Source: Alphaproteobacteria bacterium
GTDB lineage: Bacteria > Pseudomonadota > Alphaproteobacteria > MPNO01 > UBA830
Length of the DNA: 64,000 nucleotides
Direction of reading: 5' to 3'
Assembly: GCA_964291215.2 (NCBI GenBank)
Contig: OZ219791.1
Location: forward strand, 1,280,001 to 1,344,000
Of this stretch, positions 3,099-57,843 are shown piece by piece; the first letter of the stretch is position 1, and every line of letters starts with the position of its first letter. Below the pieces are notes generated by a model that saw nothing but the letters and a program-made list of their open reading frames with translations, made no database searches and was not told the DNA's origin. The position numbers were made by a program, and so were the translations under genes.

Positions 3099-4670
3099 GA
3101 GCGCCAGGTTAACTGGTAGGATGTCGCCGGGTGAGAGTCCCGGCAGGAAGAGAGGCTAACCACCACTTCCTCCGTGAACCATGCGTCGTGAGGCGAAGCG
3201 TTGGGGAGCGGCAAGCCGGGCTATTGAGCCACGAGATACTGTGAAACCGGAGTGCCGAGGTCGTGGCCGAAGGCAACACCCTGCGAGCCGCGTTGGTGAG
3301 GGGGGCTTCGCGGGGTCTGAGAACCATGGCCGAAGCAGGGACCTGGGAGGTCTTGCCCCTCTGTCGTAGAGGGGTCGCAGAGGAAATTCCGTAAACCGAT
3401 GATGAACGAGAAGTCAGATTCGGCGTGCAGCGAGTCTAGCTGCTGTACTTGCGGGTGTGAGTCCCGCCGGCGCAATTTCCAGTTTGGCGCCGTAGCATTG
3501 GTTCAGGGGTGACCGTGGACCAGCGAGCTGGGATGTAGAAGCCGTTGTGGGCTGGCTGGAACGCAGTGTCCAGCCGGTTCGGTCAGCCAGGGCGGCGAGC
3601 AAACCGGAGGGCCGTAGCGAAAGCGAACGATTGGATGAAGCCCCGAAATTGATTTCCCACATGAAGCTGATTAGTGGGGTAAACGGGAATGCCAAGGGCC
3701 TGCCGATAGCCCGATGGCCAGAGTCGATGCGGAAGAACTGGAGAGCACGCATCGGGTTCCCCGGTGGTAGAGACGGCGGCAATCCGGGACAGTACAGCGG
3801 TGAAAGATCGGAAGGTGAGGAGGACAGACAGGATGAAGTGACCCTTGAATGTCAAGGACCGCGTCTATAACCAGGACTGGGAAAGGACGCGGAGTCCTCC
3901 TGACTGGCGGATGAGGTCGATTAAGCGTTGACGGGCGGGACAACACAACCCGTCCTGAGCGAGGACCTCAGGGCTCAGGTGGCCTGTGCCGCGGTAGGTC
4001 AACGCCAGTGCTCAGAAACTGGCACCGACCGACAAGACCGCGAGGTCGAAGGACGGAGCAAACGCTCGGAGATGCCGTGGGTACGGTTGGGTCAGCCTTG
4101 ACCATGGCGCGTCCGGCGGAAGGCTCCGCACCGAACTCCAAGTGGGTGCCTGATGCTTGAACCGGGAAAACCGGACGTACGGAATTTTAGGGGGGCTGCT
4201 GGAAACGTGGTCTATGGTAGTTCAGCGACCCCGCCCGCAATCGAAAGAGCGGTGACGGACAAAGCCTCTGCCTACGGATGCGCGCGCCAGCGGCCTACCC
4301 GACCGCAAACCATCCCGGAAACGCGCACCCTGCGGCGGATCAAGGAGGCGCTGCGCAAGCGGTGGCACGACAATCGGCACAAGACGGCCAAGTGGCGAGT
4401 GATCAAAGGCTGCTACTACGCCGTTCCGGGAAGCAGTGAGTCCCTGCAGGGGTTCATATACCAATGCAAACGGCTGCGTGCCCTTCGGCGGCGTTCCCAA
4501 AAGGATCGCACCGAATGGAGGGACATGGACACCCTCATCGAAGCTCACTGGCCTAAGGCCAGCATCCGTGGCCAAACCAGCGCCTTGTCGTCAGGGGAGG
4601 AGCCGGATGCGAACAGCGCAAGTCCGGATCTGTGCGGGGGGACCGGGGAAACCCGGTTCCCTACCGCGAT
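3099..4670 (+). mobile_element. Group II intron, outer (probably class E); RT domains lost, X/maturase remnant kept
   Basis: 5' GAGCGCCAGG (GTGCGCCAGG in the other copies); domain V GAGCCGGATGCG...GTCCGGATCTG at 4600; 3' CCCTACCGCGAT; homologous to 40039-44961. Confidence 0.85.
3425..4303 (+). mobile_element. ORF-less group II intron nested in the outer intron (class F-like long domain VI)
   Basis: Starts GTGCAGCG; domain V/VI-like CGTACGGAATTTTAGGGGGG...GCAATCGAAAGAGCGG; ends CCTACCCGAC; outer-intron homology resumes exactly at 4304. Confidence 0.75.
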
Positions 4671-40038: not shown

Positions 40039-41681
40039 GTGCGCCAGGCTAACTGGTGGAATGTTGCCGGGTGCAAGTCCCGGCAGGAAGAGAGGCTAAC
40101 CACCACTTTCTCCGTGAACCATGCGTCGTGAGGCGTCAGGCGAAGCGTTGGGGAACGGCAGGCCGGGCTATTGAGCCACGAGATGCTTTGAAACCGGAGT
40201 GCCGAGGTCGTGGCCGAAGGCAACGAGCCGCGTTGGTGAGGGGGGCTCCGCGGGGTCCGAGAACCATGGCCGAAGCAGGGACCTGGGAGGTCTTTCAATC
40301 GCCCCTCTGTCGTGGAGGGGCCGCAGAGGAAAGGAACTATTCCATAAACCGATGATGAACGAGAAGTCAGATCCGGCCATAGTACCGTTGAAGGCGGCGA
40401 ACAAGGGTTCTTCGGAGCCTGCGGAGTTGCTGGAGGGAAGGGCAATGCGGTTGGCCCGCGCCGCGCGCAGAAGCGGGGGTCACAGGCGGCTGAACGCAGG
40501 TAGCGAAGAGGAACCCGGAAGAGCGTCTTTACTCCACCACGTGACGGTCGACGCTCTGCACGATGCGTTCCATTCCTTGAGGAAGGACGCGGCGGCGGGG
40601 CGTTGTGTGGCAAGCGTATGCGGAGGGTGTGGAACTGCCTGCACGCCCGTGTGCACAGGGGCGGGCGCCTCCGGGGTTTACATACCCAAGGAGGATGGAG
40701 GGCAACGACCGCTTGCCTCGGACAAGATTCTTCAGCGGGCGGTGTGATTCTGGTGCCGCGAGACGGAGTTCCTCGGGTTTAGTTACGGTTTCCGGCCGGG
40801 GCGCATCACGCGCTCGACGCCGTCACGGTGGAACGGCGGAAGGTCAACTGGATCGTTGACGCCCGCGGGTTCTTCGACAATCTCGACCGCGACCACCTGA
40901 TTGCGATGCTCGGGAAACGGATCGGGGGGTTATCCGGCTGATCATCAAGTGGCTGAACGCCGGCGTCATGGAAGGGACCGACTGGTCGGATACGGGCAAG
41001 GGAACACCGCAGGGGGCGATTGTATCGCCCTGCCTCGCGAACGTTTACCTGCACTACGTGCGACTGGTTCCAGAACCACTGGCGCAAGCGGATGGCTGGA
41101 GGCGACACGATCATTATGCGGACGACTTCGTGTGCGGCTTTCAGCATCTGGGCGATGCGCAGCGCTTTCTCCGGGACCTTGGGGAGAGGCTGGCCCACTT
41201 GAACTGCACCCGGACAATCATCGAGTTCGGTCGGTTTGCCAGAGCGAACCGCCGGAAGCAGGGCAAGACATTCGACTTCCTCGGCATGACGCACTTCTGC
41301 GAACAGACGAGGAAAGGCAGGTTCAGGGTCGGTCGCAAACCGTCTCGCAAACGGGCACCCTGCGGCGGATCAAGGGGGCCTTGCGCATGCGATGGCACGA
41401 CAACCGGCACGAAACGGCCAAGTGGTGAGTCATCAACGGCTGCTACTACGCCGTCCCGGGAAGCAGTCAATCCCTGCAGGGGTTCATACACCAATGCAAA
41501 CGGCTGCGTGCCCTTCGGCGACGCTCCCAAAAGGACTTCACCGGGGACATAGACACCCTCGCCGCTGCCCACTGAGCCAGCATCCGCCACCCGTGGCCAA
41601 ACCAGCGCCTTGTCGTCAGGGGAGGAGCGAACAGCGCACGTCCGGTTCTGTGCGGGGGGTAACCCGGTTCCCTACCGCAAT
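40039..41681 (+). mobile_element. Group II intron tandem copy 1 (RT pseudogene)
   Basis: GTGCG...CCCTACCGCAAT; RT motifs LLHHV, YIPK.DG..RPL, GTPQGAIVSP.LANVYLHYV, YADD and FDFLG in broken frames. Confidence 0.93.
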
Positions 41682-43324
41682 GTGCGCCAGGCAAACTGGT
41701 GGAATGTTGCCGGGTGCAAGTCCCGAGAGAGGCTAACCACCACTTTCTCCGTGAACCATGCGTCGTGAGGCGTCAGGCGAAGCGTTGGGGAGCGGCAGGC
41801 TGGGCTATTGAGCCACGAGATGCTTTGAAACCGGAGTGCCGAGGTCGTCCAAGTGGGCAACACCCCGCGAGCCGCGTTGGTGAGGGGGGCTCCGCGGGGT
41901 CCGAGAACCATGGCCGAAGCAGGGACCTGGGAGGTCTTGCCCCTCTGTCGTGGAGGGGCCGCAGAGGAAAGGAACTATTCCATAAACCGATGATGAACGA
42001 GAAGTCAGATCCGGCCATAGTACCGTTGAAGGCGGCGAACAAGGGTTCTTCGGAGCCTGCGGAGTTGCTGGAGGGAAGGGCAATGCGGTTGGCCCGCGCC
42101 GCGCGCAGAAGCGGGGGTCACAGGCGGCTGAACGCAGGTAGCGAAGAGGAACCCGGAAGAGCGTCTTTACTCCACCACGTGACGGTCGACGCTCTGCACG
42201 ATGCGTTCCATTCCTTGAGGAAGGACGCGGCGGCGGGGCGTTGTGTGGCAAGCGTATGCGGAGGGTGTGGAACTGCCTGCACGCCCGTGTGCACAGGGGT
42301 GCGTACCGGGCGCCTCCAGGGTTTACATACCCAAGGAGGATGGAGGGCAACGACCGCTTGCCTCGGACAAGATTCTTCAGCGGGCAGTGTGATTCTGGTG
42401 CCGCTCTACGAAACGGAGTTCCTCGGGTTTAGTTACGGTTTCCGGCCGGGGCGCATCACGCGCTCGACGCCGTCACGGTGGAACGGCGGAAGGTCAACTG
42501 GATCGTTGACGCCCGCGGGTTCTTCGACAATCTCGACCGCGACCACCTGATTGCGATGCTCGGGAAACGGATCGGGGGGTCTGATCATCAAGTGGCTAAA
42601 CGCCGGCGTCATGGAAGGGACCGACTGGTCGGATACGGGCAAGGGAACACCGCAGGGGGCGATTGTATCGCCCTGCCTCGCGAACGTTTACCTGCACTAC
42701 GTGCGACTGGGTCCAGAACCACTGGCGCAAGCGGATGGCTGGAGGCGACACGATCATTATGCGGACGACTTCGTGTGCGGCTTTCAGCATCTGGGCGATG
42801 CGCAGCGCTTTCTCCGGGACCTTGGGGAGAGGCTGGCCCACTTGAACTGCACCCGGACAATCATCGAGTTCGGTCGGTTTGCCAGAGCGAACCGCCGGAA
42901 GCAGGGCAAGACGTTCGACTTCCTCGGCATGACGCACTTCTGCGAACAGACGAGGAAAGGCAGGTTCAGGGTCGGTCGCAAACCGTCTCGCAAACGGGCA
43001 CCCTGCGGCGGATCAAGGGGGCCTTGCGCATGCGATGGCACGACAACCGGCACGAAACGGCCAAGTGGTGAGTCATCAACGGCTGCTACTACGCCGTCCC
43101 GGGAAGCAGTCAATCCCTGCAGGGGTTCATACACCAATGCAAACGGCTGCGTGCCCTTCGGCGACGCTCCCAAAAGGACTTCACCGGGGACATAGACACC
43201 CTCGCCGCTGCCCACTGAGCCAGCATCCGCCACCCGTGGCCAAACCAGCGCCTTGTCGTCAGGGGAGGAGCGAACAGCGCACGTCCGGTTCTGTGCGGGG
43301 GGTAACCCGGTTCCCTACCGCAAT
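41682..43324 (+). mobile_element. Group II intron tandem copy 2
   Basis: Begins at the base after the 3' AAT of copy 1; 1643 bp. Confidence 0.93.
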
Positions 43325-44961
43325 GTGCGCCAGGCAAACTGGTGGAATGTTGCCGGGTGCAAGTCCCGAGAGAGGCTAACCACCACTTTCTCCGTGAACC
43401 ATGCGTCGTGAGGCGCCAGGCGAAGCGTTGGGGAGCGGCAGGCCAGGCTATTGAGCCACGAGATGCTTTGAAACCGGAGTGCCGAGGTCGTCCAAGTGGG
43501 CAACACCCCGCGAGCCGCGTTGGTGAGGGGGGCTCCGCGGGGTCCGAGAACCATGGCCGAAGCAGGGACCTGGGAGGTCTTGCCCCTCTGTCGTGGAGGG
43601 GCCGCAGAGGAAAGGAACTATTCCATAAACCGATGATGAACGAGAAGTCAGATCCGGCCATAGTACCGTTGAAGGCGGCGAACAAAGGTTCTCCGGAGCC
43701 TGCGGAGTTGCTGGAGGGAAGGGCAATGCGGTTGGCCCGCGCCGCGCGCAGAAGCGGGGGTCACAGGCGGCTGAACGCAGGTAGCGAAGAGGAACCCGGA
43801 AGAGCGTCTTTACTCCACCACGTGACGGTCGACGCTCTGCACGACGCGTTCCATTCCTTGAGGAAGGACGCGGCGGCGGGGCGTTGTGTGGCAAGCATAC
43901 GCGGAAGGGGTGGAACTGGTTGATCTACACGCCCGTGTGCACAGGGGTGCGTACCGGGCGCCTCCAGGGTTTACATTCCCAAGGAGGATGGAGGGCAACG
44001 ACCGCTTGCCTCGGACAAGATTCTTCAGCGGGCAGTGTGATTCTGGTGCCGCTCTACGAAACGGAGTTCCTCGGTTTCAGCTACGGTTTCCGGCCGGGAC
44101 GCATCATGCGCTCGACGCCGTCACGGTGGAACGGCGGAAGGTCAACTGGATCGTTGACGCCCGCGGGTTCTTTGACAATCTCGACCGCGACCACCTGATT
44201 GCGATGCTCGGGAAACGGATCGGGGGGTTATCCGGCTGATCATCAAGTGGCTGAACGCCGGCGTCATGGAAGGGACCGACTGGCAAGGGAACACCGCAGG
44301 GGGCGATTGTATCGCCCTGCCTCGCGAACGTTTACCTGCACTACGTGCGACTGGGTCCAGAACCACTGGCGCAAGCGGATGGCTGGAGGCGACACGATCA
44401 TTATGCGGACGACTTCGTGTGCGGCTTTCAGCATCTGAGCGACGCGCAGCGCTTTCTCCGGGACCTTGGGGAGAGGCTGGCCCACTTGAACTGCACCCGG
44501 ACAATCATCGAGTTCGGTCGGTTTGCCAGAGCGAACCGCCGGAAGCAGGGCAAGACGTTCGACTTCCTCGGCATGACGCACTTCTGCGAACAGACGAGGA
44601 AAGGCAGGTTCAGGGTCGGTCGCAAACCGTCTCGCAAACGGGCACCCTGCGGCGGATCAAGGGGGCCTTGCGCATGCGATGGCACGACAACCGGCACGAA
44701 ACGGCCAAGTGGTGAGTCATCAACGGCTGCTACTACGCCGTCCCGGGAAGCAGTCAATCCCTGCAGGGGTTCATACACCAATGCAAACGGCTGCGTGCCC
44801 TTCGGCGACGCTCCCAAAAGGACTTCACCGGGGACATAGACACCCTCACCGCTGCCCACTGAGCCAGCATCCGTGGCCAAACCAGCGCCTTGTCGTCAGG
44901 GGAGGAGCGAACAGCGCACGTCCGGTTCTGTGCGGGGGGTAACCCGGTTCCCTACCGCAAT
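43325..44961 (+). mobile_element. Group II intron tandem copy 3
   Basis: Same exact junction; 1637 bp; IS66 sequence resumes at 44962. Confidence 0.93.
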
Positions 44962-47087
44962 GGTCGTCTGTGAAGCGCAGGTTTTCGTGTTTCACGAGAC
45001 GTTCGTGCAGGTTGTGCGCGCCGGACTTGCGTCCACGTTTTCCTTTCGGCGGGATATCGGGCAGTTCCCTGGCGCCCTGATGGTGCGGTAGCGCTTGCGC
45101 CCGGCGTCGTTCAGGGTTTTGGATGCGCTCTTGTTGACCTTGTGGCAGGGAGCAGGCTCTTCATCAGTCGCGCGGTAGCCTCGACGACAAAGGTCAGTTC
45201 GCGCAGCAGGTGGCTGCCGCTGGTGGCTACACTGGCCCATGTACGAGGCCCAGGACGCCCTTGTAACACGGGATGATGCCGATCTCTTGCCCGCGCTTGC
45301 GGTGCGGGAACTTGCACGTCAGGGTCCCACGACATGGAGCCACTTACTGTTGATCCGAAATCGTCGACATCGGGCGTTGCAGGAGGTGCGCCACGGCGGC
45401 CTCCTCCCATGACGCATCGTGAAAGCATAGCCGAGGCCTCGGAGAGCTTGATATCGCCTGCACGAGCGCGACGGCGCAGGGACAGCATTTGGGCGACCAG
45501 CAGGTTGATGACGAGGGCCTGGATGCCGATGCCGTAATGCACGGGATGTTGTCGGGGAACCGGCCCCGGGCCTTGCACTTCGGACATTCCTTGATCTCGG
45601 CGCGGCGCTCGACGACCTCGAACACGATGTCGTGCGGCGCTCCCGATCGACGGGGCCGTCGATGTCGGCGCCGCAGGCCGCGACCGTTTCCTCGACGATG
45701 GTCTTGCGCAGGTTGTCGCCCATCTGCCGGTTCGGCTTCGGGCCGTTGCTCCCGGCACGCTCTCGTCCTTGTCCGTCTGTGACGGCGGCAGACCGGAGTT
45801 CCGGCTCGTGCGTAGTCTTCTCCAGAAGGACGACGATGATGATGTCGAGCAGGATGACGAGGACGCGGATCACGGCCTCTTTCGGCACCTTGCCGGCAGC
45901 GCCGCGGTCTTGGCCGCTTCGAACTCCTCGCGCGCCGCGTTGACCGTCGCCATCACCCGGTCTTGCGCTTCATCAGCGCGCCGCCTCCGAGATGCGTTTC
46001 CACATACAGATCATGCGGGGGCTGGAGCCTCGGAAGCAGCTGGCACAGCCCGCTCGTCGCCTTCGATCCAAAGTAGCCCACTGGCGGTCCCCTCGATTAC
46101 CACCACTAAACGAATCGGCCTGCAGTGTCAAATCTCCACGAAAACCCGTTCATTGCTCTACCCCGACATCAAGCCGGAACCAGGGGGTGAGCAGTTACGA
46201 GGCGGCAAATAAGACCCTCGTCACACAGCGCATGAAACGCTCTGGCATGCGCTGGCGCATCGTCGGCGGACAATCACCTTCCGCGCCCTGCTCGAAGCCA
46301 GCCGCTTCGAGAGCGCGTGGACGGCCATGATCGGTGCAGACGACGCACCAGCCAACGACAACATCAGCCCAAATCACACCCCGGCACTGGCCGTACGAGA
46401 TGAACAAATGGTACTGAGCCTGCAACTGTGCCATACGAAACTCTCACCCTTCGCCGCTTCCTGTGGCGTGGGAGTTGCGGGCGCCGCTGGTCGCGCAGGA
46501 GTTGTGCTCGATTTATCAGCGGCGCTTTCCGGCGCGCGCAGGGGCATCGCCTCGGTACTGTGCGTGATGGCGCGGCTTGCGAACCGGCGCGGCGGCGCAC
46601 TACGACGCAGAAGGAGCTGGAGCAGCATGGAAGAACAGGGACAAGCCGGTCTCGACCGTGCACCGGGTGCTGCAGAACACCGACCCGGGATGGATCGAGG
46701 ATGCGGCGCGCAGCCGCAGGTCGGCAACGCGGTCGACGGCAAGCGCACCGGCGAGGATCATTACGAGACAGTCTCGCTGGCCGGTATTCGATCCTCAACT
46801 ATCACGACGGGGAGATCGCTGCCGTCCACGCCGCGACGGCGCTGGCCGTCTGCTCACCCTCGACGCGCTCCACACCACCCGCGAGGCTGATCATCGAGAC
46901 CCATCGCGCGGACTGATGGTCAAGGGCAACGCACCTTCGAGAGAGCATCAACTGGAAGACCGCCAGCGCTACAACGAAAAGCCCGCGCATGGCCGCCAGC
47001 GCATCATCTTCACCCCGCTGGCGAAGATGATCAACTATGTCAAGCAGATCTTCCGCGTCACCCGGCACGTCGAATTCAGGAAATCCG

Positions 47088-48287
47088 CCCCACTTCCAGT
47101 CTGAAGTGCAACATCCGGCCCTCATCGCAGTGAGGGCGTAGCCCGAACGGAGATGAGGGCCGGATGTTGCGCAAATTTTTCCCCTCTGCTCTTCTCGATT
47201 CCGCCTGGGAACAGCTTCAGTTCCTTCAACATCGAGCTTATGCAACGCCTTTGTCGGCTTCAAGCCACTATTTCGTCGTCGCGCGGCATGGACCCTGCTG
47301 CACGTTGCGGCTTTGGAACGCAGATGGTCAGCGCGGTTTCACTTCAAGATTACCTCCGTCGGCGATCCCAGGACTTTCCGAGTGTTGAGCCGCACCTTCT
47401 GAACATCTTCGTTGCATGTCGCGCGAAAGTCCGTGCCCTTCGGGAAGTACTCCCGCACCAGGCCGTTGGTGTGCTCATTCAAGCCGCGCTCCCAGGAATG
47501 GAAAGGCGAAGAAGAAATCTGCGTCAAGTGCGACACGCCTGTGGTCTGCGAACTCTTTGCCGTTGTGATTGTGTGGACCAATAGCGCACCAGAGCCGAGC
47601 AGGCGGATCATACCAACCGTGTCTTTCTGTCCACCCAGCAAGGTGTATTTCGTGGCACGAGCGACACGACAGCTCCACTGTGAGCTTTGCCGATGATGGC
47701 TCCCAGTCGCCGATCCGTTCCTTTGCCTCCGCAGGGCGCTCGGAAATGTCCACTCGGCCAGGAATGTGGCCCCGATGGCATCCGCCCTTCCAGTTCGGCT
47801 TCTTGCCGCGCCGCCGAAGCTTCTTCCACAAGACGCCCCGGCTCTCCGATCTTCGGCGATCATGGATCCGTTGCCAACCCACGGCCCTCCAGTCGAAAAC
47901 GGCCGCTGCTCGGGGCCCTCCCGCAGCTTTTTCTGAGCTTCAGCCCGAGGCGTCAACCGCCAAGAAACAGACAAGGCGGCCCTGCGGCGCGTTTCTGCCA
48001 TCCTTTGCGCCTGCTTGTGACGGTAACCCCGTCCCCCGGTGTTGCGCTTGATCTCCCGGAAAATTGTTGATCGGCCCAGCTGCCGAGCAATCGCACCTCG
48101 TGAAAGACCGCTTTTCTGCCTCAATCTGACATCGCTCTTCGTAGGTGACGGTAGCCTTTGGACATGAACAAGCTCCCTTCATCTTGTACAGGAACTCTCG
48201 CCGCTGCTGGACAGCTCCGCAACATCATGCGTCTAAAAACACATGGCCACAGCCCATCATGTGTTGCACTTCACTATGGAACGGGGG
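47088..48287 (-). mobile_element. IS30-family element, degenerate
   Basis: TIR cores TTCCAGTCTGAAGTGCAACA / TGTTGCACTTCACTATGGAA; IARQLGR.STI.REIKRN and SWERGLNEHTNGLVREYFPKG. Exact ends are approximate. Confidence 0.88.
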
Positions 48288-50235: not shown

Positions 50236-52083
50236 CACGGTGATCCCACGCTAGGTTTGTTGGAAGGGTCGGTTTCGCTTATTCAGGATGATTCGCATTT
50301 TCGCTGGCTTTTTGTGAAGCGACGTAGTATCCGTTGTCGTGGGGGCAGCGGATTTTTTTGAGACGACTCCGGAGGGTTTTGCGCTCCGGGATGTGGTTGT
50401 GCGCCTTGCGCGGCCTGATGTCGCTGAAATCGTGTCGTTGACCGTATCTTGGTTTCAAGCAGTTTGCCGGTCGAGGTCTGCGTGTTCACCTGGCGCGGGC
50501 GGTGGATTGGTGCTGCGGGCTGGCAGACGGGCGTCCTCAGCTGCGCACCCGTTGGATTGGCTGGCGCCGCGAGGAACAGTTCAGGCGGTTGCCGGGAACA
50601 ACACGAGGTTTGTTGTTCCTGGTGGTCGTTTCCGGGCCTTGCCTCGTTTGCGTTGTCGCGGATGGTGCGGCGTGGCGACTGGGAGGCTGCGTACGGCCAT
50701 CCGTTGCTTGTTGCGGAGTCGTTTGTCTCGCCGACGAAGTTCAGCGGCACCATGTACAAAGCGGCGAACTGGGAGTGCGTTGGCAAGGGCTATGCGCGCG
50801 CCAGCGGGCGCTATACCGACCGGCACGGGGAGGCGAAGGATCTTTACGTGTTTCCGCTGCGTCGCGATGCCTGTCGTCGGCTGCGGGATCGTTCACCGCT
50901 TCCTGTGGCGTGGGAGTTGCGGGCGCCGCTGGTCGGCGCAGGAGTTGCGCTCGATTTATCAGCGGCGCTTTCCGACTTCCGGCGCGCGCAGGGGCACCGC
51001 ATCGCCTCGGTGCTGTGCGTGATTTTGCTGGCTTGCGAACCGGCACGGTGCGGTTGCGGCGGCGCACTACGACGCAGAAGGAGCTGGAGCAGCATGGAAG
51101 AACAGGGACAAGCCGGTTTCCAAATCGACCGTGCACCGGGTGCTGCAGAACACCGACCCGGGATGGATCGAGGATGCGGCGCGCAGCCGCAGGTCGGCAA
51201 CGCGGTCGACGGCAAGCGCATCCGCGGCCGCACCGGCGAGGATCATTACGAGACGGTCTCGCTGGCACGGGACCGGTATGCCGGTTTCGATCCTCAACTA
51301 TAACGACGGGGAGATCGCTGCCGTCCACGCCGCGACGGCGCCGGCCGTCTGCTCACCCTCGACGCGCTCCACACCACCCGCGAGGCTGATCATCGAGACC
51401 CATCGCGCGGACTGATGGTCAAGGGCAACGCACCTTCGAGAGAGCATCAACTGGAAGACCGCCAGCGCTACAACGAAAAGCCCGCGCATGGCCGCCAGCG
51501 CACCATCTTCACCCCGCTGGCGAAGATGATCAACTAGTCAAGCAGATCTTCCGCGTCACCCGGCGCGTCGAATTCAAGAAATCCGGAAAACGGACAACCG
51601 AATACGGCATGACCTCGGTCAAGGCCGAACGCGCCTCGCCGCAACAGCTGCTCGCATGGAATCGCGGACACTGGGTAGTCGAGAGCCATCATCATGTCCG
51701 CGACGCCACCTTCCGCGAAGACGACTCCATGCTCCGAACGCGCCCGCAAACAACGCGATCACCCTCGCAATCATCATCCGCAACAAGCTGCCCAAACCCT
51801 TCAACAGCTTCGTCGACACCACTATGCCGACAAACGCAAGCAGGTCCTGCACGCAATCACAAGACCAGGCTGACCGCGCCTCTCTCCCCGACAGAAACCG
51901 CAAGCCTTCGAGCCCGGCAACCAAACTCGGCAGGCCTCTCGCTCGCCCCGGATACGCCGACCAATCGCGCCCCGCGCCGCAACAGCGCGTCAGCAAATCT
52001 CAAAATCGCAGTCTCGAACGCGTCGACCCGCGCCGCGATCAGGACTCCGATCACATCACATCAACAAGCATGGGATCATCTTG
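50236..52083 (+). mobile_element. ISAs1-family (DUF4338-fused) copy B, both ends, degenerate
   Basis: TIRs CACGGTGATCCCACGC / GCATGGGATCATCTTG; motifs NNTRF, GTMYKAANW, AVDGKRIRG, TLDALHT and RGHW.VE.HHVRD.TFRED. Confidence 0.9.
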
Positions 52084-52173: not shown

Positions 52174-53880
52174 CTACTCCGTGTCTATCCTCGCTGCGTA
52201 GCCGCCGGCAGCGTGCCCGGTCCCGAAGTGGGCGTTGAAGGTGCCGATCATGCCGTCCGGACGCCCCGGGCCGGAATGGTGATAGCCCTCACCCTGCCAC
52301 TCGCCGGCTTGAGGCATGTCGCCGCCGGGAGCGGCGGAACCCTGGGCAACGCCTTCAACGTCGATGAGGTCTTCGTATTCAGCCGTCCCCTCCTGGAGCG
52401 TAACGCTCCAGTCCGAGCCGACGGCACTCCCCTTGAAGTTGTCGATCTTTCCTTTCAGTTTGGACTTGACGGCGCCAACCACGAACGTCGCGTTGAGCGT
52501 CACATCCGCCGTGAACTGTCCCGACTTTTGCCCCGTATGCGTGCCGGCGGTGTAGGTCTTCAGCACCGACAGGCCAAAGGCCTCGCCCTTGTAGGTGGCG
52601 GTTTTGGCGAGCCCGGCGGTCTCGCTGACATCCCCGCCATAGCCGGCGGGGGCGTGGGCGAAGAGACGAATCCCGACATCCTCGCCGGTCTCATACAGCC
52701 AGTACCCGTAGCGGGCATAGGCTCCATACCGCGTGTAGTGGGCGTCGGTCGCCTTCATCCGGTAGTAGCGCGTTTGATCGCCGCTCTCTTCCCCGAGCCA
52801 CTGGAAAAACAGGTTGCCGGTCAGCTTGCCTTCGTCAACCGTGCAGCTGCCCTGGCAGTGCAGCGTCCCCTTGACCCCCTTGTAATACTGGGTATCGGCC
52901 TTGTTGTTGGGGAATGCGGGAAGCGCCGTCAGGGCCGTTCCATCCGAGCCGGTGAGTACGGAAAGGGGCATCCCGGCAAGGGGCAGGACATCGACATCCA
53001 TGTTGTCGGTGCCGAAGGCCTTCTTGATCAGGTTCCCCGCTCCGGCAATCTGCTCCCAGGTCATGACGTCTTCCGGGAGGCCGCGCAGGTCATACTTGAG
53101 GTAGGCCCTGGAGCGGCCAGTGTTGTCGGTCTGGTCTGGATCGGAAGTGGCGGGGAGGACAACCTTCGTCGGTACAACACCAATAAGATCATCATCGGTA
53201 TCGTCTTCCCTCCGGCTCGTCGTAGCCCCGACCTTCGGTGCGCCGTCGCTCTCGCTGAAAGGCTGCAGCATGTAGAGGACCCCCCGTGCGCCAGAGTAGG
53301 TGCCCTGGTTCCCGGAGGCGTCGGCGTCGCCAGCGGGGGTTTCGTCGGCGCGCGCCTTGATCTTCGCCTCGGTATCGACCCTCCCGGCATAGCCGTTGAT
53401 CGTTCTCAGATACCCCTCGATGAGCTTGATCTCCGCCTCCACTTTCTCGATCGCACTCGCGGCCACTTCTTTTTGCGCCGCGAGGCCGGGCGTGTCGGAC
53501 GACGCGGCGTCCAACTCCTTCTTCGCCTCCTCGGCCTTCATCTTCTCCGCCTTGGCCTCCGCCAGCGCCTTCTCGACCGCCGCCTTCGCGTCCGTTATGA
53601 TCTTGGCGTTGGTCGCGACTACCCCGCTGTCGCCGCCTGTGTTGTAGATGTCAGCTGGGTCCGCCTTCTTGGCCGCGTCAAGCTGCGTTTTCGCTGTCGT
53701 CCTGGCCGTCATGGCCGCCTTTTCGGCCGCCTTGGCGTTGTTGTACCAGTCGTCCGGCGTCATCATCTGCTCCTCACCGCCCATCGCCGTGGCCGGCTTC
53801 TTCGACCCGCCGCCGCAGCTCGCGAGCGCCAAACCCGCAGCGGCCAGCGCCGCCAAGGTCACATATTTCATAGTTCTCAT
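52174..53880 (-). CDS. Surface lipoprotein with coiled-coil stalk and C-terminal TbpB-like beta-barrel
   Basis: Lipobox LASC-GGG; Ala/Lys-rich coil; YGYWL, ATYKGEAFG, FTADVTLNATF, G.IDNF and GTFNAHF..GH.AGGY; AGGAG RBS. Confidence 0.75.
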   Translation of the reverse strand: MRTMKYVTLAALAAAGLALASCGGGSKKPATAMGGEEQMMTPDDWYNNAKAAEKAAMTARTTAKTQLDAAKKADPADIYNTGGDSGVVATNAKIITDAKAAVEKALAEAKAEKMKAEEAKKELDAASSDTPGLAAQKEVAASAIEKVEAEIKLIEGYLRTINGYAGRVDTEAKIKARADETPAGDADASGNQGTYSGARGVLYMLQPFSESDGAPKVGATTSRREDDTDDDLIGVVPTKVVLPATSDPDQTDNTGRSRAYLKYDLRGLPEDVMTWEQIAGAGNLIKKAFGTDNMDVDVLPLAGMPLSVLTGSDGTALTALPAFPNNKADTQYYKGVKGTLHCQGSCTVDEGKLTGNLFFQWLGEESGDQTRYYRMKATDAHYTRYGAYARYGYWLYETGEDVGIRLFAHAPAGYGGDVSETAGLAKTATYKGEAFGLSVLKTYTAGTHTGQKSGQFTADVTLNATFVVGAVKSKLKGKIDNFKGSAVGSDWSVTLQEGTAEYEDLIDVEGVAQGSAAPGGDMPQAGEWQGEGYHHSGPGRPDGMIGTFNAHFGTGHAAGGYAARIDTE

Positions 53881-54462: not shown

Positions 54463-55874
54463 GGCCCCATCCTCCCGTGCCGAATTCCACGCCGCCGCGC
54501 CCGAACGGCCGCAGCGAACCCGTCATCGCAATCTATAACCCGTCCGCTGGCCGGTTTCAAGGCGCGCCGCGCCCGATACACGGCGATCCCACGCCAGGTT
54601 TGTTGGAAGGGTCGGTTTCGCTTGTTTAGGATGATTCGCATTTTCGCAGGCTTTTTGTGAAGCGACGCAGTATCCGTTGTCGTGGAGGCAGCGGATTTTT
54701 TGAGACGACTCCGGAGGGTTTTGCGCTCCGGGATGTGGTTGTGCGCCTTGCGCGGCCTGATGTCGCTAGAATCGTGTCGTTGACCGTATCTTGGTTTCAA
54801 GCAGTTTGCCGGTCGAGGTCTGCGTGTTCACCTGGCGCGGGCGGTGGATTGGTGCTGCGGGCTGGCAGACGGGCGCCCTCGGCTGCGCACCCGTTGGCTG
54901 GCGCCGCGGGGAACAGTTCAGGCGGTTGCCGGGAACAACACGAGGTTTGTTGTTCCTGGTGGTCGTTTCCGGGCCTTGCCTCGTTTGCGTTGTCGCAGAT
55001 GGTGCGGCGGCGACCGGGAGGCTGCCGTTGCTTGTTGCGGAGTCGTTTGTCTTGCCGACGAAGTTCAGCGGCACCATGTACAAGGCGGCGAACCGGGAGT
55101 GCGTTGGCAGGGGCCATGCGCGCGCCAGCGGGCGCCGACTGGGGAGGCGAAGGATCCTTGCGTATTTCCGCTGCGTCGCGATGTCGGCTGCGGGATCGTT
55201 CGCCGCTTCCTGTGGCGTGGGAGTTGCGGGCGCCGCTGGTCGGCGCAGGAGTTGCGCTCGATTTATCAGCGGCGCTTTCCGGCGCGCGCAGGGGCATCGC
55301 CTCGGTGCTGTGCGTGATGGCGCGGCTTGCGAACCGGCGCGGTGGCGCACTACGACGCAGAAGGAGCTGGAGCAGCGTGGAAGAACAGGGACAAGCCGGC
55401 CTCCAAATCGACCGTGCACCGGGTGCTGCAGAACACCGACCCGGGATGGATCGAGGATGCGGCGCGCAGCCGCAGGCCGGCAACGCGGTCGACGGCAAGC
55501 GCACCGGCGAGGATCATTACGAGACGGTCTCGCTGGCCGGTATTCGATCCTCAACTGTCACGACGGGGAGATCGCTGCCGTCCACGCCGCGACGGCGCCG
55601 GCCGGCTGCTCACCCTCGACGCGCTCCATACCACCCGCGAGGCTGATCGTCGAGACCCATCGCGCGGACTGATGGTCAAGGGCAACGCACCTTCGAGAGA
55701 GCATCAACTGGAAGGCCGCCAGCACTACAACGAAAAGCCCGCGCATGGCCGCCAGCGCACCATCTTCACCCCGCTGGCGAAGATGATCAACTAGCAGATC
55801 TTCCGCGTCACCCGGCGCGTCGAATTCAGGAAAACCGAACACGCCATGACCTTATATGACTAGGTTTTGTCTCC

Positions 55875-56115
55875 TTGATGATGAAATCATCCACAGCAGT
55901 TGGGGGCGGGAAAATGTGGATCTGTGGGAGAGCGTCCGGTTTATGGTTGCAGAGAGATTCCGCTCCCCTGAGCGAACATGCACAGGGGATCAAACGATCT
56001 CCGCGGAGGTTGCCGTTTTGACCTTGACAGAGCCGCGACCGAGTGTGGTCGGCCAACCTCCCTTGACGTCCCTCGCATGGATGCCTGGGTTTGAACCCAT
56101 CGTAAGGCGAGGAGC
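55875..56115 (+). ncRNA. Putative IS110 bridge RNA
   Basis: Target loop closed by GGAGGTTG/CAACCTCC contains TGACCT and GACCGAG; donor loop closed by CCTCGC/GCGAGG contains ATGGATGC and GTAAG. The 5' boundary is approximate. Confidence 0.75.
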
Positions 56116-56874
56116 AAGGGACGATGGTCAAGGTAGTAGCAGGGGTCAGCCAGTCTGGACATCTGGCGCATTGTTTTGCGGACGACGCCACGGGCAGGTG
56201 GCTTCGCGGCCTCGGGGTGAGCCGGGTGGTGGGCGACAGGCCGCTATCACCGCAAGGTTCACCAGTGTCTTCATGACCGGGGCTTCGAGGTTATTCTCGT
56301 CAACCCGTTGCGGGCGCTTCGCCGAGGCGCCAACCGCGTCGACGCCAAGATCGGCTGGGCGATCTCGAGCCTGTGGCTCCGCCTTCCTCAAGAGCCTGGA
56401 GGATCTCCTGGTGCCGCGCTTGTCGACGCGTGGCAGATGAGGTAGATGGCGAGACCGTCACAAGGGCCTCGGCGGCCGATCTCGATGATCGCATTGCCGG
56501 CGCGGCGATCAAAGCGGTGATCACCGGTGATTCCGAGCAGAGGTACGCCATCCTGACCTCGATCCCCGGTCCGATGACCGCCGCGGCCCTTCTTTGCTGG
56601 ATGCCCGAACTCGGCAGCGTCGGCAGCCTTGATCGGGGTGGCGCTGATGGCCAACGACCACGGTGCTCGGCACATCCGTGGCGGGCGCCGAAGGCCACGC
56701 GATCTCCTGGCCGCAACCGGCACGCTTCAACGCGGACCTGGTGCGCCTCAAGACTGCCGGCAAGCAAGGTCGCGATTGTCGCCGTGATGCGCAAGCTCTG
56801 GCGAACACCTTGCTGCGACAGCAGCGTTGCTGGTCGACCGAAGCACCGGTGAGTGAGCGAAGGAGACCACCTTC

Positions 56875-57060
56875 ATGGCCCTCACCCCTGCCGAGAGCGC
56901 GATCGGGACTGTCTCGACAGTCTCCCTCTACGACACGACTTGGGAAGAATGTCTGCAGATCATCGTCGAGGCCGACATCGAGGAGATCGAACCGCCTTGG
57001 GACACCTGGAACCCGGACGGTCACGTGCCCGGGGACGGCAAGGTAGCCGCGTTCACGTGA
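56875..57060 (+). CDS. Small acidic hypothetical ORF inside the IS110 right end (possibly eroded)
   Basis: AAGGAG RBS, ATG, 61 aa; family unrecognised. Confidence 0.4.
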   Translation: MALTPAESAIGTVSTVSLYDTTWEECLQIIVEADIEEIEPPWDTWNPDGHVPGDGKVAAFT

Positions 57061-57843
57061 CCAATGGACGGCAACCCGCCGCCGGGACCACAAGCTTCAT
57101 GTCGCCTCGCTCGCAGAGCAAACCCCACACCGCTTGTGGACAACCACAGAAAAAATCACCGCAGACACCCGCAAAAACCTTGCCAAGAAACATGGATGCT
57201 CGGTCGAGCGCGCCTCGCCGCAACAGTTGCTCGCATGGAATCGCGGACACCGGGTAGTCGAGAGCCATCATCATGTCCGCGACACCACCTTCCGCGAAGA
57301 CGACTCCATGCTCCGAACGCGCCCGCAAACAACGCGATCACCCTCGCAATCATCATCCGCAACAAGCTGCCCAAACCCTTCAACAGCTTCGTCGACACCA
57401 CTATGCCGACAAACGCAAGCAGGTCCTGCACGCAATCACAAGACCAGGCTGACCGCGCCTCTCTCCCCGACAGAAACCGCAAGCCTTCGAGCCCGGCAAC
57501 CAAACCCGGCAGGCCTCTCGCTCGCCCCGGATACGCCGACCAATCGCGCCCCGCGCCGCAACAGCGCGTCAGCAAATCTCAAAATCGCAGCCTCGAACGC
57601 GTCGACCCGCGCCGCGATCAGGACTCCGATCACATCACATCAACAAGCATGGGATCACCTTGGCTGAGCGCTCGGCGAGCTTTGCCAAATATCCACGACG
57701 CTGATATAGTTGCGGCACGGAGCGAGGAACGGTAGGCGCGCGGCGTCCCGGATCAGCGCGAAGAGCTTGTGGACTACGATTCCGCGTTTTTGCTCCTGCC
57801 GGTGCGCAGCGAAGCGGAGCAGAGTGTGCAGACGACGGGAGGG

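Follow-up and report, generated by a model that had tools for sequence, protein, structure and literature searches.

The 64,000-nucleotide (nt) stretch of contig OZ219791.1 analysed here, referred to as the window, carries at positions 55851-57200 an IS621-type element of the insertion sequence (IS) family IS110, one more case of a known mechanism. The element is decayed and lies in the transposase gene of another insertion sequence, ISAs1, and its intact ancestor very probably homed to this ISAs1 site by RNA guidance. We infer a circular form, a promoter at the circle junction and RNA-guided insertion because these are known for IS621 and ISEc21. The genome that contains the window (G000; 6.15 Mb in two contigs, 99% complete) holds about 60 copies of the family.

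The element has a CT core at each end. At its left junction, TGAC (55847-55850) is followed by the core (55851-55852) and the element start TATATGAC; at its right junction, ATGGATG (57192-57198) precedes the second core (57199-57200), after which the host resumes with CGGTC. The empty site, TGACCTCGGTC, is present in ISAs1 copy B of the window at 51610-51620, and comparison of the filled and empty sites revealed no target duplication beyond the CT core. An earlier reading of the same DNA from its letters (the sequence-only reading) had placed the element at TGAC-CT-CGGTC in ISAs1 copy C with the empty site in copy B, and the junctions and the site agree with it. The host was identified as ISAs1 by its least-deleted copy, L033, which scored 102.6 bits on NF033564 (cut-off for an ISAs1 transposase, 70 bits) and matched PF13808 and PF01609; a second ISAs1 host family, represented by L035, scored 92.2 bits on NF033564. 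In the two ISAs1 families and in a third element, a DruA/DUF4338-like N-terminal domain is fused to the transposase or lies ahead of it (Table 1).

Because the recombinase fragments of the window copy alone gave no IS110 Pfam match, the IS110 identity rests on less damaged copies and on relatives. Fragments from other G000 copies matched PF01548 (DEDD), PF02371 (Ser) and NF033542, and the intact recombinase of relatives is a protein of 315 amino acids (aa) with PF01548 and PF02371, within the 315-330 aa typical of the IS621 group. The nearest solved structures were those of IS621 (E 2e-28) and ISCro4. Membership of the IS1111 group was considered and rejected, as the guides and the RNA-model match lie upstream of the gene and not in the right end downstream of it. 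An Rfam scan of 55851-57200 gave no family at the gathering threshold, and a search of a plasmid collection gave no match. An IS110 DNA search of 40 relative genomes returned only three weak short matches. A recombinase protein search was positive in G001 (a 54% relative) and weakly so in G004, and gave nothing in G002 or G003.

The sequence-only reading had described an IS621-type bridge RNA in the left end and had proposed that it be checked by folding and by an RNA model built from homologues. Eight intact relatives were aligned and fold into this layout, and the window copy matches the RNA model, scoring 91.7 bits compared to 167-189 bits for three intact or nearly intact relatives (two of which built the model). 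Over the whole fold 94.3% of the alignment cells are paired, with four compensatory pairs, and in the stem of the target loop 99.2% are paired, with three. None of 500 shuffles gave a covariation score as high, though according to the tool this score is not to be read as a probability. The target-loop stem of the window copy, GGAGGTTG/CAACCTCC, encloses the left guide and the right guide GACCGAG, and the donor loop contains ATGGATGC and, within 56098-56106, GTAAG; the target stem, the guides TGACCT and GACCGAG and both donor motifs had all been located correctly. The proposed donor stem, CCTCGC/GCGAGG, is present but was drawn in the wrong register: it uses handshake bases and breaks at two handshake positions, being unpaired there in three and two of the eight relatives, and it was rejected. 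The donor-loop stem instead joins alignment columns 92-106 with 146-159 (window 56067-56076 with 56110-56123), where 93.8% of the cells are paired. Since this stem is invariant at 13 of its 14 pairs, it is conserved but not proven by covariation.

Handshake pairing rules have been described for IS621 (PMC11208158). In the G000 family, the base before the core is C in all 40 intact left junctions, facing a donor-loop G, and 60 of 61 copies have C or U as the first handshake base of the target loop, again opposite a donor G. The right donor guide changes together with the donor junction when L052 is compared to the other relatives. The handshake bases and this agreement between donor guide and junction support the view that the donor guides recognise the element's own circle junction. 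If the ends were joined, they would give TTGCCA (57180-57185), 17 nt and TATGAC (55855-55860), a spacing that had been predicted and that counting bears out. The predicted junction promoter matches the consensus hexamers at 5/6 and 4/6 positions with a 17-nt spacer, and no promoter-like site was found in the integrated state. For integrated IS621, weak RNA expression and inefficient excision have been reported (PMC13626964).

The family census of G000 comprises 63 rows in which a left end is paired with a right end; one right end is common to two rows, and in one row the right end is not a true one. For the guide tests, two rows were left out because their RNA region could not be read, and the remaining 61 carry 17 guide haplotypes. 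Assigned by right flank, 20 rows lie in the ISAs1 family of the window, 14 in the second ISAs1 family (at three sites), 15 in IS1634, four in an element with a DUF4338 domain, three in ISNCY, one in IS630 and five at single-copy sites, leaving the one without a right end. Altogether 57 of 63 rows are inside mobile elements. The suggestion that the family parasitises ISAs1 therefore holds as regards repeated insertion (34/63 rows) but not as regards specificity, as 23/63 rows are in mobile elements other than ISAs1. Relatives in other genomes were found in or beside IS5, IS66, IS3, group II intron genes and ordinary genes. In both ISAs1 families the insertions target equivalent codons on the sense strand, YGMTSV in one and YIITSL in the other (YxxTS). 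At about 12 left ends other repeats abut within ~10 nt, mostly just before CTAG, removing the junction and adding a third layer of nesting (for example at C2:1789707, C2:868414 (-), C2:178906 and C1:1705009 (-)). The sequence TGACCTCGATC at window positions 56554-56564, inside the recombinase gene itself, fits one of the guide alleles perfectly as a target.

Guides and sites vary together, as a check of guide/target covariation over the listed copies, proposed in the sequence-only reading, revealed. In 38 of 60 rows the right target is matched without error by the reverse complement of the 5-nt right guide, compared to 14.3 expected by permutation, and the last 5 nt of the left guide are exact in 16 of 38 compared to 6.0. 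For seven of the nine right-guide types, at least one copy occupies a matching site. Because the G000 copies are kin, the guide test was repeated outside G000 on 31 loci from metagenome-assembled genomes (MAGs) of Alphaproteobacteria. Both ends were present in 23 of these loci, and the 22 that were successfully parsed yielded 17 distinct guide-site pairs with seven guide types, and the pairs scored 8.17 of 9 compared to 4.38 when shuffled (p=0.0003). The guide alleles of G000 differ by one to three substitutions and go with different sites across six host families. Three of the sites are shared by copies whose guides fit them fully, by half or not at all. This series fits stepwise retargeting, but also gene conversion between copies. 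Copy-and-paste circles with half-match insertion have been reported (10.64898/2026.08.31.748434), and such a process would explain the high copy number as well as some of the mismatched sites.

Occupied hosts are also dispersed. In the ISAs1 family of the window 19 of 42 right arms are filled, scattered over the host tree with 11 changes, and a second host tree has 14 of 26 filled with nine changes, the hosts in question being ISAs1 and IS1634. A single-change solution for the ISAs1 host tree was obtained in 0% of the bootstrap trees.

Several observations weigh against homing by RNA guidance or weaken its evidence. The right guide mismatches its own site in 22 of 60 rows (ten of them by one mismatch, a CGGAC guide at CGGTC), and in the window copy the left guide matches only six contiguous bases plus two wobbles. 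Of the 39 copies that have both junctions, at least seven carry a left flank from one site and a right flank from another. Because the copies share descent, permutation p-values obtained within the genome overstate significance. Guide positions are only marginally more polymorphic than others (p=0.05-0.07 within clade A; for all copies, p=0.002 or 0.06 depending on the criterion). The host trees are poorly resolved, with 7/39 and 1/23 branches starred, and the filled labels of IS1634 and ISAs1 lie near shuffled on them, a distribution that recombination alone could give. The donor guide and the left-end variant disagree in several copies, at one right-donor position. The predicted -10 hexamer is without its last T, and the circle junction was found neither in the assembly nor among the joints listed for three public runs of the same sample type (from one study, possibly the source of the assembly). 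Among the sequencing runs listed as containing the sequence, none was of RNA. Finally, the right end is longer than the left and contains a second open reading frame (ORF), unlike typical IS110-group elements. In the intact relative L052 the left end measures 317 nt and the right end ~700 nt including this passenger ORF, which encodes 96 aa (L052:2478-2765, +) and begins with a basic, helix-like stretch; its look-alikes in Atlas are hypothetical proteins with no Pfam family. A left end longer than the right is a tendency of the IS621 group and not a strict criterion (PMC11208160), and expanded IS110 elements have been described (10.64898/2026.08.14.744561).

The sequence of events that we propose follows IS621. 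The element would form a circle, and its joined ends would make a σ70-like promoter from which the left end would be transcribed. The target loop of the RNA is predicted to pair with the bottom strand to the left of the core and with the top strand to its right, while the donor loop would pair with the element's own junction, and the recombinase would insert the element scarlessly at the CT core. The family may have spread by repeated homing into abundant and dispensable transposase genes, with retargeting through point mutation of the guides. Later recombination among copies would have scrambled some guide-site pairs, and recurrent deletions of 5-8 nt would have wrecked the recombinase and the RNA scaffold in every aligned copy.

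Comparison with intact L052, to which it is 92% identical, shows 43 deletions in the window copy, of which 25 fall in the gene and four, of 4-7 nt each, in the RNA scaffold. In its target loop the basal stem is short of 6 nt and the inner stem-loop of 5-6 nt, and its donor loop has deletions of 7 and 4-5 nt. The sequence-only reading had reported the first catalytic Asp as lost. D9 is indeed gone (residues numbered as in intact P0004), but the damage is far larger: E51, D93 and S232 are missing too, leaving D96 as the sole catalytic residue. Among the 57 aligned copies, which carry 30-53 deletions each, D9 is kept in 2, E51 in 7, D93 in 10, D96 in 53 and S232 in 18. None of the 63 rows has a full-length recombinase reading from a start codon or a full target-loop stem, 6 nt of which are missing in all 57 aligned copies, and an 8-nt deletion has removed the left junction of nine sister copies. 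The idea that the RNA guides survive while the recombinase decayed was not borne out. Deletions number 1.8 per copy per 100 nt in the RNA region compared to 2.4 in the gene; at such similar rates the RNA region gives no clear sign of preservation.

Nor does the assembly support mobilisation in trans at present, which had been raised as a possibility, as no intact cognate recombinase or RNA was found in G000, a search with the intact protein giving fragments only. Two intact IS110 genes of ~415 aa (C1:480856 (+) and C1:884740 (-); loci L013 and L014) were rejected as helpers, being of another clade with other ends and without a match to the RNA model. These two low-copy genes are 96% identical with a single 6-nt gap and are spared by the deletion pattern. 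Judging from the copies compared, all of them deletion-ridden, the family is likely dead in G000 and the window copy is likely immobile on its own. With its ends intact, it could still be used as a donor by an incoming intact relative. In one other MAG, a common 7-nt frameshift at the KTDR motif, where G000 also has a hot spot, occurs in seven copies (L063-L068 and L074); these occupy at least five different sites, three of them in IS5. The sharing of this frameshift at several sites leaves some probability for past mobilisation in trans.

An intact master, since lost or unassembled, could thus have moved dead copies in trans, and the guides of a copy would then not need to match its site. We consider this unlikely as an account of the insertion pattern. 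It would explain the guide-site mismatches and the common frameshift of the seven copies, near-identical copies at unrelated sites do share about 30 deletions including that of the first catalytic Asp, and RNA supplied in trans works for ISEc21 (PMC11187229) and has been discussed for IS110 (10.64898/2026.08.14.744561). However, a 99% complete assembly in two contigs lacks such a master and its intact IS110 genes are of another clade, while guides and sites still go together lineage by lineage, which is what guidance of each copy by its own lineage would produce. Shared deletions do not show inheritance, because deletions recur across deep clades, and copies at 0-3 single-nucleotide polymorphisms (SNPs) per kb still differ by 11 deletions on average.

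Less probable still is an origin of the ISAs1 and IS1634 copies in one or a few insertions that were multiplied as composites by the host transposase or by recombination. The insertion keeps the host ends intact, mosaic flanks show that copies recombine, and the weakly resolved host trees leave room for such a history. Against it, the filled hosts do not form one clade (the starred branches alone force at least three and two changes in the respective trees), and the same guide lineage occurs at guide-matching single-copy sites, C1-1169093 and C1-2112914. The preference for mobile elements may, on the other hand, reflect survival: guides of 9-11 nt match many sites, and insertions in useful genes would be purged. 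This has a real though somewhat less than even chance of being right. Repeats make up 34% of G000, relatives elsewhere are also found in ordinary genes, and of the 14 empty matches to TGACCTCGGTC, seven are found outside ISAs1 or within the element. Such a sieve does not conflict with RNA guidance; yet the occupancy of one exact site per host, in 19/42 and 14/26 cases, needs site-specific insertion or copying, and the placement of 57 of the 63 rows in mobile elements also counts against it. We retain homing by RNA guidance, with later scrambling, as the preferred reading.

The short deletions, of 5-8 nt, recur at fixed positions in the high-copy repeats of G000 and, between near-identical copies, are more numerous than substitutions. 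All seven high-copy families examined (10-40 copies each) have 11-26 insertions or deletions (indels) per kb, with sizes that peak at 5-7 nt and few of 2-4 nt. Within the window, repeats with such deletions are the ISAs1 copies at ~46300-47100, 50236-52080 and 54580-57660 and the group II introns at 40039-44962. The same deletions are found in clades 53 diagnostic SNPs apart, with such SNPs kept 3-9 nt away. Across 22 pairs of copies at 0-3 SNPs per kb the mean was 11.4 deletion differences, and one pair with no SNP had ten. In a sample of 450 tiles from G000 repeats (419 with a match were used), the number of 5-8-nt gaps per substitution rose from 0.035 with one other copy to 0.22 with 40-79 copies and was 0.19 with at least 80, and that of 1-4-nt gaps was flat with copy number; younger age or selection may be all that sets low-copy repeats apart. 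The same deletion peak was seen at three of seven ISAs1 loci in G002, of the same genus, and at none of eight in G004. No strong sequence motif was found at the deletion sites, only a weak GC-n3-A enrichment, and hairpins were not enriched; imperfect direct repeats were weakly enriched (at least 5/6 identical in 20% compared to 5.6%). Ku and Piwi were not found in G000-G004, and MutS is present in all five genomes.

Errors of assembly or polishing, with the elements intact in the cell, are a very improbable source of these deletions. Assemblers do fail in high-copy repeats, and it is there that the damage clusters, but its sizes peak at 5-7 nt and not at 1-2 nt, and the same-genus genome has the same peak in some copies while another genome has none. 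Moreover, contigs from the three public runs agree perfectly, at depths of 223-2017, with stretches of 105-119 nt that bear deletions, and they show both states of several 5-6-nt indels. MutS binds loops of up to four nucleotides (PMC8235422). Our preferred explanation, held tentatively and at a little under even odds, is that rare slippage deletions escape mismatch repair, as loops above 4 nt might evade MutS, and could spread between copies via heteroduplex. It is less likely that a dedicated, repeat-directed and homology-dependent process makes 5-8-nt deletions at fixed sites in multi-copy DNA faster than point mutation. Were there such a process, it would have killed the IS110, ISAs1, IS1634, ISNCY, IS630 and group II intron families, and the frozen IS110 copies would record how a bridge RNA was naturally retargeted, step by step, between host transposons of a single genome; we hold this combined reading to be unlikely. 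Independent recurrence at sequence hot spots, hidden elsewhere by selection, seems about as unlikely as the dedicated process. Among the indels there is a bias towards deletion. A literature search on the deletion pattern and on natural IS110 retargeting turned up no description, within a coverage that mostly excluded subscription papers.

Table 1. Annotated parts of the IS110 element, its ISAs1 host and the matching empty site (window coordinates unless a locus is named)
Feature	Position	Strand	Remarks
Host ISAs1 copy C, left arm (DruA/DUF4338-like part and transposase)	54580..55850	+	Short deletions; ends approximate
Left target half TGAC and left CT core	55847..55852	+	In codons Y-x-M-T-S of the ISAs1 transposase
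IS110 left non-coding end	55853..56123	+	Predicted -10 hexamer 55855-55860, complete only in the circle
Bridge RNA 5' stem-loop	55985..56002	+	Predicted fold
Target-binding loop	56005..56061	+	Left guide 56016-56024, right guide 56037-56043, handshake 56044-56045
Donor-binding loop	56067..56123	+	Left donor guide 56077-56084, right donor guide 56098-56106, handshake 56107-56108
IS110 DEDD recombinase gene remnant (originally 315 aa)	56124..56850	+	End approximate
Truncated second ORF in the right end	56875..57060	+	End approximate
Right end	57180..57200	+	Predicted -35 hexamer 57180-57185, left-donor ATGGATG 57192-57198, CT 57199-57200
Right target half CGGTC and right arm of ISAs1 copy C	57201..57660	+	End approximate
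Empty target site in ISAs1 copy B	51610..51620	+	Sequence TGACCTCGGTC
DruA/DUF4338-like N-terminal domain	L033:224-1981	+	
DruA/DUF4338-like N-terminal domain	L037:623-1600	+	
DruA/DUF4338-like N-terminal domain	54657-55300		

Elsewhere in the window, three group II intron copies stand in tandem at 40039-44962 with a spacing of ~1640 nt, and a fourth lies near 3100-4600. Between ISAs1 copies B and C there is an intact, lipoprotein-like ORF of 568 aa (52174-53880, -), for which a Pfam search gave no significant family.

The element resembles IS621 and ISCro4 in having a CT core at both ends and a left-end RNA upstream of the gene (PMC11208160, PMC11208158). It further shares with IS621 the 5' stem-loop with target and donor loops, a left target guide of 9 nt and a left donor guide of 8 nt, the bulged right donor guide, the handshake bases and a DEDD and Ser recombinase of similar size, and a junction promoter like that of IS621 is predicted. 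In contrast to IS621, which targets REP elements, the G000 family targets transposase genes; it has a naturally extended right guide of 5 nt, a longer right end with the 96-aa passenger ORF and many guide alleles in one genome, and all its copies in G000 are probably dead. ISEc21 likewise inserts at a conserved catalytic-region motif of transposase genes, those of the IS3 family, although its recombinase is of another size class (358 aa), and ISMch6 shows natural redirection with three changed guide bases (PMC11187229). The present case differs from both in combining, for one family in one genome, 17 haplotypes, six host families and partly matched intermediates at three sites.

Bridge RNAs, the targeting of another insertion sequence's transposase gene and natural retargeting are thus already published, and the value of this family beyond the known mechanism is its within-genome guide series and the repeat-linked deletion pattern. 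The 17-haplotype series bears on how IS110 elements change targets and how many mismatches are tolerated, and the intact relatives L044, L052 and L057 make retargeting directly testable. In fungi, repeat-induced point mutation concentrates damage in multi-copy DNA and rises with copy number; the lesions of G000 differ in that they are deletions of 5-8 nt, fall at fixed positions and occur in a bacterium. If an active or homology-driven disabling of repeats proved true, bacteria would have a genome defence of a new form, a deletion-based counterpart of the fungal process. If the deletions were only a by-product of the blindness of mismatch repair, they would still change the dating of mobile-element decay.

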